Positions 20,770 through 23,680 of a DNA stretch of 64,000 bases are shown here, one piece after another (positions within the stretch are counted from its first letter, which is position 1; each line of letters begins with the position of its first letter). The notes under the pieces were generated by a model, which was not told the origin of the DNA, ran no database searches, and was given only the letters and a program-made list of their open reading frames with translations. This DNA comes from Pristiophorus japonicus. Taxonomy: Eukaryota. Both the position numbers and the translations under genes were made by a program. The stretch covers positions 319,858,001-319,922,000 of the forward strand of contig NC_091978.1 in the NCBI RefSeq assembly GCF_044704955.1, written 5' to 3'.

Positions 20770-23680
20770 ATGTGTTCATGGGATGTGGGTGTCGCTGGCA
20801 AGGCCAGCATTATTGCCCATCCCTAATTGCCCTTGAAAGGGTGGTGGTGAGCTGCCCTCTTGAACCACTGCAGTTCGCATAGTGAAAGTATTCCCATAGT
20901 GCTGTTAGGGGCGAGTTAAAGGATTTTGACCCAGAAACTATGAAGGAACGACAAAATATTTCCAAGTTGGGATGGTGTGTGACTTGGAGGGAAATTTAGA
21001 GATGATGGTGTTCCCATGCACCTGCTGCTCTTGTCCTGGAGGGTTTTGGAGGTGCTGTCGAAGAAGCCTTGGTGAGTTGCTGCAGAGCATCTTGTAGATA
21101 GTACACATTGCAGCCATGTTGCGCTGGTGGTGGAGGGAATTAATGTTTAAAGTGGTGGATGGGGTGCCAATCAAGCGGGTTGCTTTGTCAGATGGTGTTG
21201 AGCTTCTTGAGTGTTGTTGAAGCTGCACTCATCCAGGCAAGTGGAGAATATTCCATCACACTCCTGACTTGTGCCTTGTAGATGATGGAATGACTTTGAG
21301 GAGTCAGGAGGTGGGAGACTCCCCGCAGAATACCCAGTCTCTAAACTCTGTTGTAGCCACAGTATTTATGTGGCTGTCCAGTTAGGTTTCTGGCCAATGG
21401 TGACCTCCACAGGATGTTGATGTTGGGGGATTCGGCAGTGGTATTGCCATTGAATGTCAAGGGGCAGTGGTTAGACGCTGTCTTGTTGGAGATAGTCATT
21501 GCCTGGCACTTGTGTGGCGCGAATGTTACTTGCCATTTATCAGGCCAACCCAGGTCTTGCTGCATGGACTGCTTCGTTATCTGAGGAGTTGCGAATGGAA
21601 CATCAGCGAACATCCCCACTTCTGACCTTATGGAGGGAAGGTCATTGGTGAAGCAGCTGAAGATGGTTGGGCCTAGGACACTGCCCTGAAGAACTCCTGT
21701 AGCAATATCCTGGGGCTGAGTTGATTGACCTCCAACAGCCACAACTATCTTCCTTTGTCCTAGGTATGACTGCAGTCAGTGGAGAGATTGTCCCTGATTC
21801 CCATTGACTTGAATTTAACTAGGGCCCCTTGACGCCACACTCGTTCAAATGCTGCCTTGATGTCAAGCACAGTCACTTTCACCTCACCTCTGGAATTAAG
21901 CTCTTTTGTCCATATTTGGACCAAGGCTGTAATAAGGTTTGGAGCCAAGTAGTCCTGGCAGAACCCAAACTGCACATTGGTGAGCAGGTTATTGGTGAGT
22001 AATTGCCGCTTGATAGCACTGTCACCAACACCTTCTATCACTTTGCTGACGATTGAGAGTAGACTGATGGGCCGATAATTGGCCGGATTGGATTTGTCCT
22101 GCTTTTTGCGGACAGGACATACTTCTCGGCCTTTTGGCTAAGATCATGCGTAACTGACCTGACAGGGGAGTAACCATGACCCCAAAGTGGTTCTCCCTGG
22201 ATCAGGAAGGTGGTTCTCCTATGCTTTTTGGAAATAGGAGGTGGGTGGGGTGGATTGGTCCATCCACCTCCACGGAGGTGTGTGGGGGGCCTGACCCATC
22301 CACCTCCATGGCACGAACCTGGTATTGCAGTACTTCCAGGAACGGTGCAGTGGCTCTCGGCCTTTTGGCTAAGAGCATTGGCGCAGAGTGATCCTTGATG
22401 TGTGCAAGGTGACCTCTGGCGTTTGTGATTTGACAAAAAATTGGAAAGATTGGCTACGAAAAAAGAAAAAAAAAATACATGGGCAGTTTTCCTCTTTGTC
22501 GGGTAGATGCCAGTGTTGTAGCTGTACTGGAACAACTTGGCTAGAGGCGCGGCTAGTTCTGGAGCACAAATCTTCAGCACGACAGCCGGGCTAGTGTTGG
22601 CTTTTCTGATGATATGTGGAGTGAATTGAATTGGCTGAAGATTGGCATCTGTGATGGTGGGGACCTCAGGAGGAGGCCACTATGAATCATTCACTCAGCC
22701 ATTCTGGCTGAAGATGGTTGCAAATGCTTCAGCCTTGTCTTTTGCACTTGTGCTCGACTCTGCCATCTTTGAGGATGGGGATAGTCATTGAGCCACCTCC
22801 CTTTAATTGTTTAATTTTCCACCAGTATTCACGACTATATGTGGCAAGACTGTAGATCTGATCTGTTGGTTGTGGGATCACTTAGCGCTGTCTAAAACAT
22901 ACTGCTTATGCTGTTTAACCTGCAGTTCTGTGTTGGAGCTTCATCAGGTTAGCACCTCATTTTTAGGAACTCTTGGTGCTGCTCCTGGCATGCTCTACAT
23001 TCATTGAACCAGATTTCATCCCCCGGCTTGATGGTAATGGAGGAGTGAGAGATATGCCAGGCTATGAGGTTGCAGAGATGGAATAATATTCTGCTGCTGC
23101 TGATGGCCCACAGTGCCTCAGGGATGCCCAGTTTTGAACTGTTAGATCTGTTCTGAATCTGTAGTGCCACACAACACGACGCATGGTGTCCTCCACAAGG
23201 ACTGTGCGGTGGTCACTCCGACCAATACTGTAATGGACAGATGCATCGGCGATAGGTAGATTGGTGAGGAGGAGGTCAAGTAGATTTTGTGTTGTTTCTC
23301 TCACCACCTGCCGCATGCCCAGTCTGGCAGCTTTGTCCTTCAGGATCAGCTCAGTCAGTATTGGTGCTACTGAGCCACTCTTGGTGAGGGACATTGAAGT
23401 GCCCCACCCAGAGTAGATTCTGTACCCTTGCTCAGTGCTTCTTCCATGTGGTGTTCAACATGGAGGAGTACTGATTTATCAGCTGAGGGAGGGCGGTAGG
23501 TGATAATCAGCATGAGATTTCCTTGCCCGAGTTTGACCTGATGCCAGGGGTCCAGAGTCAATGTTGAGGACTCCCAGGGTCACTCGACTGTGGCGCCATC
23601 TTTGGTGGGTCTGTTCTGCTGGTGGGAAAGGACATAACCATGGATGGTAATGGAGGAGTCTGGGACGTTGGTATGATTCG
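20770..23680 (-). mobile_element. Decayed CR1-group LINE ORF2 (endonuclease and RT), a family distinct from the other CR1 copies
   Basis: TYRPPSAD, LDLLLTNL, IGRSDH, CAPELAAPLAKLFQYSY, QFGF, LDIKAAFERVW, QGSVLGP, MFAD; interrupted at 22122-22475. Confidence 0.9.
22122..22475 (+). mobile_element. Chimeric U2/U1 snRNA-derived retroposon (SINEU-like) with an A-rich tail
   Basis: U2 5' end 22122-22146; U1-like 22153-22200 and 22200-22219; Sm-like TTTTTGG; U2 3' stem-loop IV 22317-22349; second U2 5' end 22355-22374; A-tail 22459-22475; possible short TSD ATAC. Confidence 0.85.

Follow-up and report, generated by a model that had tools for sequence, protein, structure and literature searches.

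A dispersed copy of a U2/U1 chimeric SINE family in Pristiophorus japonicus with relatives at the start of U2 snRNA genes

Short interspersed elements (SINEs) with heads derived from small nuclear RNAs (snRNAs) have been described as SINEU-1, -2 and -3, which, as far as the published description goes, are confined to crocodilians, target Mariner-N4 and have the long interspersed element (LINE) Tx1-Mar as partner (Kojima 2015, PMC4494074). Transcription of these promoter-less elements was left open in that defining paper and, on the account in PMC5786205, was still undemonstrated in 2018. Keno, of the Tx1 clade, and Utopia are LINEs whose downstream U2 flank is given as starting at nucleotide (nt) 39 (PMC4640811), and R2 is discussed in PMC4494074 as a promoter-less element dependent on a multicopy target gene for its transcription. 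The literature covered held no report of snRNA-headed SINEs outside crocodilians; Repbase, Dfam and subscription journals were beyond its scope. Here we describe an element at positions 22122-22475 of a 64,000-nt stretch of Pristiophorus japonicus DNA (hereafter the window; contig NC_091978.1, 319,858,001 to 319,922,000), which is one copy of a young SINEU-like family and is flanked by a 4-bp target duplication. We consider it probable that this is a 5'-truncated, dispersed copy of a U2/U1 SINE whose sister copies sit at position +1 of U2 genes, are transcribed from the U2 promoter and are copied by a Tx1/Keno-type LINE.

The family is SINEU-like by structure, and it is set beside the crocodilian elements here through their published description. 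Its copies are short, polyadenylated and multicopy, their heads are identical to nt 1-28/29 of host U2, and they have their target in common with a Tx1 LINE. The likeness covers U1/U2-derived heads, U1-U2 chimerism, partial duplication of U1, a poly(A) tail, a length below 500 bp, tandem insertions sandwiched by target-site duplications (TSDs), internal oligo-T, and a partner of the Tx1 type that itself has snRNA heads and whose 3' tail is unlike that of the SINE. The P. japonicus family differs from SINEU, as published, in its order (U2-U1-U2-U2-tail), its target (U2 nt 38/39) and its copies at U2 gene +1. With Keno and Utopia the system has in common the insertion point, nt 39, and an Exo_endo_phos-type endonuclease with reverse transcriptase (RT) as for Keno; unlike them, the P. 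japonicus SINE is a non-autonomous passenger, and no Keno SINE is named in the account of those elements (PMC4640811). Unlike R2, the SINE would use an RNA polymerase (Pol) II snRNA promoter rather than one for Pol I, carries the 5' end of its target and mostly lands off target.

The element is about 340 nt long and non-coding, with a poly(A) tail and TSDs. The window copy is 5'-truncated by 4 nt, beginning at U2 nt 5, its A-tail ends near 22475, and it differs from the majority of its subfamily at three private positions. A second copy of the host LINE within the window holds a single ATAC at the insertion site. The sequence-only reading had placed the element at 22141..22349, which cuts into the U2 stem-loop I head and leaves out the A-tail, the hairpin of the tail and the repeat of U2 stem-loop I; the motifs it had named (junction, U1 stem, T5 tract, two hairpins and stem-loop IV loop) were all located where it had put them. 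The features are as follows.

22119..22122, + strand: left TSD ATAC, its last base doubling as U2 nt 5; single ATAC in the other host-LINE copy
22122..22152, + strand: U2-derived head, nt 5-35; nt 5-29 as in host U2, nt 30 and 32 changed
22150..22160, + strand: U2/U1 fusion junction, GTA joined to ACTGACCT; branch-point sequence halved, U1 nt 6 T>G
22150-22155, + strand: GTAACT, located as a motif
22153-22160, + strand: ACTGACCT, located as a motif
22153..22199, + strand: segment from U1 (nt 3 to about 50) with an intact stem I, by comparison with host U1
22167-22197, + strand: stem GGGAG/CTCCC and AACCAT/GTGGTT, located as a motif
22178-22186, + strand: U1 loop GACCCCAAA, diverged from host GATCAAGAAG
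22200..22219, + strand: partial duplicate of U1 nt 28-47, by comparison with host U1
22220..22231, + strand: TATGC (predicted junction partner) and Sm-like tract GCTTTTTGG without A, from the fold and subfamily comparison
22225-22229, + strand: T5 tract, located as a motif
22237..22307, + strand: tandem pair of hairpins where U2 has stem-loop III, from the fold; one or two depending on subfamily
22237-22271 and 22274-22307, + strand: the GGAGGTG..CACCTCC hairpins, located as motifs
22258-22259, + strand: two private changes inside the tandem hairpins, against the subfamily majority
22311..22348, + strand: U2 stem-loop IV, loop TATTGCAGTACTT; loop present in 160 of 168 sampled copies
22324-22331, + strand: ATTGCAGT of the stem-loop IV loop, as in host U2
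22353..22376, + strand: second copy of U2 stem-loop I (remnant of an earlier head), by comparison with host U2 and the sister family
22377..22458, + strand: tail with constant stem and hypervariable 7-nt loop; related to the sister-family tail, no Tx1 LINE match
22459..22478, + strand: A-rich tail and right TSD ATAC (22475-22478)
21341..22121, - strand: decayed LINE RT region, the host sequence of the SINE and not part of it, continuing beyond 22478

The element thus runs from U2 nt 1-35 (in full-length form) through U1 nt 3 to about 50 and a duplicate of U1 nt 28-47 into a U2 3' half, in which stem-loop III is swapped for one or two hairpins and is followed by stem-loop IV, a second U2 stem-loop I, the tail and an A-tract. 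The wild-type pairing motifs are, in RNA letters, GUAGUA and ACUUACCUG. Both had been read as changed in the window, which is correct for this copy and for the main family; GTAACT is not a point-mutated GTAGTA, as had been proposed, but the point at which U2 nt 33-35 are fused to U1 nt 3 onward. The alternative of U1 upstream flank joined to U1 needs one change more than U2(1-35) plus U1(3-) and was rejected. Compared with host genes, the element lacks U2 nt 36 to about 95, so that the branch-point recognition sequence and stem II are replaced by the U1 segment and the element is not U2 snRNP-like in this respect. In Rfam, U2 (22118-22355) was the only match in the window above its gathering score (55.7 bits; gathering 46); U1 matched weakly at 22151-22270 (29.3 bits, E 1.2e-5, below gathering), and matches to Prion_pknot, rox2, miRNAs and PrrB, all below gathering, were treated as chance. 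A 232-nt stretch of the element folded with a z score of -3.4, none of 200 shuffles being equally stable. The element has no tRNA head and carries runs of T4 and T5, and it does not belong to the Pol III class of SINEs, defined by a tRNA, 7SL or 5S head and an internal Pol III promoter. Most of the long open reading frames of the window (ORFs; 7562-9011, 21341-23454, 32208-32729, 37409-37861 and 54857-56310) belong to decayed LINE RT fragments or are of low complexity, and no host gene was recognised among them.

Searches of the species' own genome (5.9 Gb) gave at least 5,549 exact matches for a 22-mer from the body and 2,265 for a 25-mer across the junction; the reversed patterns, used as controls, gave none. 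A genome DNA search returned 2,026 candidates, the best of the 40 scored being 96-99% identical. Family copies have A-tails and TSDs, TSD-separated tandem arrays are frequent, and the head reaches U2 +1 in 42 of 141 headed copies. The changes in the pairing motifs are inherited in the main family and not private to the window: wild-type ACTTACCTG follows the head at only 2 places, as against the 2,265 exact junctions, and a set of 30 loci chosen on the 3' body only comprised 11 with a truncated 5' end, 17 with one or another form of the cut junction and 2 with wild-type GTGTAGTA, while ACTTACCT was absent from all of them.

Loss of GTAGTA is nevertheless not a requirement, because the motif is retained both in a derived subfamily (wild-type GTGTAGTA, at least 217 exact matches) and in a sister family. 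The wild-type-head subfamily is young (median nearest-neighbour distance 0.3%) and has derived features in common with other young subfamilies; the branch-point sequence was therefore likely regained, and its loss is no condition for spreading. Tail-loop variants reassort among head types in a 14-row alignment. The sister SINE family starts with an almost complete U2 from which 9 nt are deleted around stem II, continues with another U2 head and a tail related to that of the U2/U1 family, and keeps wild-type GTGTAGTA in 19 of 20 sampled loci. Its second U2 head ends at nt 38 or is decayed, the tail is short with poly(A), and there are at least three subfamilies. We infer that the U2/U1 family descends from this U2-derived sister family, because its most diverged subfamily keeps sister tail features with the junction already present.

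Sister copies of the window element were located behind U2 promoters, which bears on how the family is transcribed, something that had been called unexplained. Among 30 pattern matches, 18 sit at +1 behind the real 150 nt upstream of U2 and end on U2 nt 39; these upstream sequences belong to two promoter types (17 and 1), 17 matching at 100% ungapped and one at 82%. The occupied unit, as seen in the 9 of the 18 that were examined in full, consists of promoter, SINE from +1, A-tract, U2 39-191 and 3' flank, with gene nt 29-38 replaced by the junction of the SINE. Occupied units made up 5 of 29 and 4 of 30 in two arrays. Fifteen dispersed copies are 0-5 substitutions from resident ones, and three of these distances are especially short (L186, L229 and L264; 0-1 substitutions, same tail variant). 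Resident SINE copies are likely transcribed from the U2 promoter. Two types of U2 gene with unrelated upstream sequences were seen, a tandem array of ~770 bp with a (GTT)n spacer (L096-L115) and a dispersed cluster (L146), the latter differing in stem-loop IV. In the C9 U2 cluster (18-21 kb units; L146:5001-6401 and L147 minus 10000-9310), a fixed LINE 3' fragment follows each U2 gene and is joined to a second U2 39-191, and sister SINEs are stacked there in some units.

The same site is used by a LINE. Twenty-nine family 3' ends join U2 nt 39 inside sister-family copies or in tandems at such sites, and a TSD running from U2 39 to about 53 accompanies several of them; a first search placed none of these 29 in real U2 genes, since the tail of the resident subfamily ends differently. 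A Tx1-type LINE also ends on U2 nt 39, the same base as the SINE. An intact resident LINE in the C19 U2 array encodes an ORF1 of 569-572 amino acids (aa; ZCCHC3 domains, zinc knuckle) and an ORF2 of 1145 aa with endonuclease, RT and zf-RVT domains. Five LINE copies start at U2 +1 behind the promoter, four LINE ends join U2 nt 39 and two join another LINE head. With two ORFs, an APE-type endonuclease, RT and a U2 insertion whose 3' flank starts at nt 39, the resident LINE is Keno-type by domains and insertion site. Seventeen older, dispersed LINE copies are not at U2. Because SINE and LINE use the same insertion site, the SINE is likely mobilised by this Tx1/Keno-type LINE.

Several further observations concern the LINE and its site. 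At G000:C19, about 69.63-69.72 Mb (L300, L301, L303 and L304), several intact Tx1/Keno-type LINEs fill U2 units from +1; the head of the resident LINE reads GGAGTA for GTAGTA, and some LINEs are inserted in the head of another at the same position. LINE 5' ends (L210, L215, L216, L219 and L220) come in two forms, a U2 1-44 head or a ~70-nt non-U2 leader, and directly behind the U2 head lies the octamer ATGCAAAT, which we take to be an snRNA distal-element motif. At G000:C3:312.19 Mb (L224), five tandem 41-nt repeats of U2 nt 13-53 precede two SINE copies, all at the struck target. At L215, L246, L257 and L241 a single site holds a stack of elements, either SINE and LINE or members of two SINE subfamilies, separated by the same TSD, which suggests repeated use of one nick.

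The LINE endonuclease target is GTAGTA/TCTG, of which GTAGTA forms half, and the junction removes it from the SINE head. Wild-type sites of the sister family were struck at nt 39 in 33 places of at most 692, including 5 in one U2 cluster that may be duplicates, and the U2/U1-family head was struck at 1 locus of an estimated 1,950 or so. Target loss is thus a measured consequence of the junction, and it may also have been the selected cause of the loss of GTAGTA.

R2 elements are known for homology-guided 5' joining. In the explanation that we favour, source copies at U2 gene +1 would be transcribed from the U2 promoter, and the resident Tx1/Keno-type LINE, at the same U2 site, would copy the SINE RNA. 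The head, invariant over U2 nt 1-28, would then yield a cDNA that anneals to the upstream target and sets the element in promoter register. Such homologous joining of the head leads one to expect both the replacement of gene nt 29-38 and a head that stays invariant while everything after nt 28 drifts. Dispersed copies such as that in the window would be promoter-less dead ends of relaxed targeting. The loss of the pairing sequences started as a fusion breakpoint. Two things likely made it persist: the element's own head no longer offers a target to the endonuclease, and the region folds into one long hairpin. An origin at the breakpoint, loss of the target and masking in the RNA are compatible with each other.

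A number of observations weigh against this explanation. Fewer than 1% of copies lie in U2 sequence, and the flanks of the others have only a weak A/T bias across the insertion point and TCTG in only 7 of 114. The SINE tail has no homology to the Tx1 LINE beyond words of 9-11 nt. The head of the LINE itself, although changed to GTGGAGTA/CCTG, is still struck (2 ends; 4 contexts), so that small changes give no immunity, and the sister family spread with the whole target intact. Resident copies comprise only 3 haplotypes in 15 distinct contexts, and most may be array duplications of few insertions. The window subfamily was not found behind a U2 promoter in any of 5 head matches or among the 18 resident copies; its source loci have presumably turned over, being lost from the arrays or missing from the assembly. 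The case for promoter capture is built from DNA sequence. Burial of the junction is a prediction, and it is weakest in the window subfamily (pairing probability, P, 0.66 for nt 33-38).

Selection on structure was assessed in 134 copies by counting variants at paired and unpaired sites rather than by R-scape. The sample pooled several targeted searches, and many copies had been retrieved with patterns that held head nt 19-28 and the stem-loop IV 5' arm constant; the predicted fold of one copy served as the structure, and related subfamilies are not independent. Of the 216 paired sites, 29 had a variant common to at least 4 copies, as against 35 of the 127 unpaired ones (p 0.0015), whereas rare variants (204 paired to 118 unpaired) were proportional to site number. 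The stems therefore look selected, and the neutral erosion that would have spoken against the sequence-only reading was not seen. Common-variant sites numbered 7 of 9 in the U1 loop and 1 of 12 in its stem, 3 of 10 in the loop of the first hairpin and 0 of 25 in its arms, and 6 of 7 in the tail loop and 2 of 34 in the tail stem. There were none at the 28 sites of the U2 head and none at 13 sites of the stem-loop IV loop, as against 16 of 26 in the three other loops (p 3e-4).

Pairing is also predicted for the junction region. The predicted folds of 7 family representatives all place nt 29-46 in one arm of a long hairpin, and different substitutions and indels appear to keep this pairing across subfamilies. 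The predicted P for nt 33-38 is 0.66-0.99 in these representatives; host U2 has 0.20 and the sister family 0.33-0.50. Wild-type GUGUAGUA in the wild-type-head subfamily is likewise predicted to be buried (P 0.81), and TCAGG of the U1 duplicate has CCTGA as its predicted partner, a pairing that would hide the end of the U1 5' segment. This burial is the best support for the idea of masking, and a general need for stability would explain it too.

The sequence-only reading had proposed that the RNA is selected to mimic a small nuclear ribonucleoprotein (snRNP) without disturbing splicing, an interpretation that was partly supported. Its fuller form, in which RNA from the U2 promoter enters the snRNP pathway and pairing sequences are removed or masked under selection against poisoning of splicing, seems to us a serious but rather doubtful explanation. 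The U1 hairpin keeps its stem I helix, as had been claimed, and not its loop. The loop bound by U1-70K is G28-G37, with U30, C31 and A32, and the crystal structure described in PMC4383343 has U30 and A32 in contact with the 70K RNA recognition motif. Both of these bases are changed in the element, the loop differs in each subfamily, and U1-70K binding is likely lost. The U-run of the Sm-like tract stands too, but a full Sm site does not: host U2 (GATTTTTGG) has an A directly before the U-run, and this A is missing from the window subfamily (C in 51 of 51 sampled copies) and from four others. A canonical ATTTTTG tract occurs in the wild-type-head (30 of 30 sampled) and U2-resident-type (11 of 11) subfamilies. 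The stem-loop IV loop, which in U2 is bound by U2B'' with U2A' according to PMC4371339, is predicted to be unpaired and is invariant among subfamilies, as mimicry would have it, but in 15 of 19 sampled sister copies it is changed to ATTGCAAT. Because few parts of the element vary as much as the U1-70K loop, and because the Sm tract of the window subfamily lacks its A, the element is at most a partial mimic of an snRNP; as regards protein binding, the mimicry is likely confined to the stem-loop IV site and the canonical Sm tract of two young subfamilies. Removal or masking of pairing sequences would fit the predicted pairing of wild-type GTGTAGTA where it is present, the change to GGAGTA in the head of the resident LINE and the deletion in stem II of the sister family; yet that family spread with a poorly paired wild-type GTAGTA, older LINE copies retain GTGTAGTA, and intact stem II was already missing from all forms. 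The lack of an intact stem II should by itself block use in splicing. Somewhat unlikely as a whole, in our estimation, is the wider proposal of a SINE that parasitises both U2 arrays and the snRNP pathway, in which the head acts as a homology arm that re-seats the element at the U2 start, the RNA is capped and 3'-processed like U2, the youngest forms bind Sm proteins and U2B''/U2A', and subfamily-specific changes have been selected to bury or cut the pre-mRNA-pairing sequences while erasing the element's own target.

A neutral history, with a template-switch breakpoint, founder mutations of a successful master and hairpins kept for general RNA stability, is similarly tentative. It accounts for GTAACT being exactly U2 33-35 plus U1 3-5, for a U1 change of one substitution and for the return of GTAGTA in a young subfamily, but leaves unexplained the invariant unpaired loop of stem-loop IV, the invariant 28-nt head and, in the predicted folds, the repeated and differing ways of keeping nt 29-46 paired. 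Transcription could instead start from a flanking or tandem-neighbour promoter or an internal one, with the U2 head re-added by template switching onto U2 snRNA and U2 residence a by-product of LINE targeting. The absence from the assembly of a U2-resident copy of the window subfamily and the abundance of tandem arrays would suit this; we nonetheless find it quite improbable, given that no common 5' extension was seen by eye among 50 near-full copies and that resident copies lie in exact +1 register, behind two promoter types and with near-identical dispersed relatives. The T4/T5 runs also argue against Pol III, an argument made likewise in PMC4494074. Finally, the Rfam U2 score above gathering would suit a variant snRNA gene of the host that functions at this locus, but the anatomy refutes such a gene: the copy is 5'-truncated, A-tailed and TSD-flanked, lies inside a decayed LINE without U2 upstream sequence and has three private changes, which leaves that explanation practically no probability. 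We therefore return to U2-promoter transcription of resident sources and copying by the Keno-type LINE as the probable explanation for the window copy.

About one in six units is disrupted in the two assembled U2 arrays. SINE- and LINE-occupied U2 units adjoin intact ones, and together with an intact LINE and near-identical dispersed SINEs they make transcription testable at named loci. The new part of this work is the analysis of selection, in which the family serves as a natural mutational scan: U2 stem-loop I, the stem-loop IV loop and all stems have been kept, and the 70K loop and the exposed pairing sequences have been dropped.

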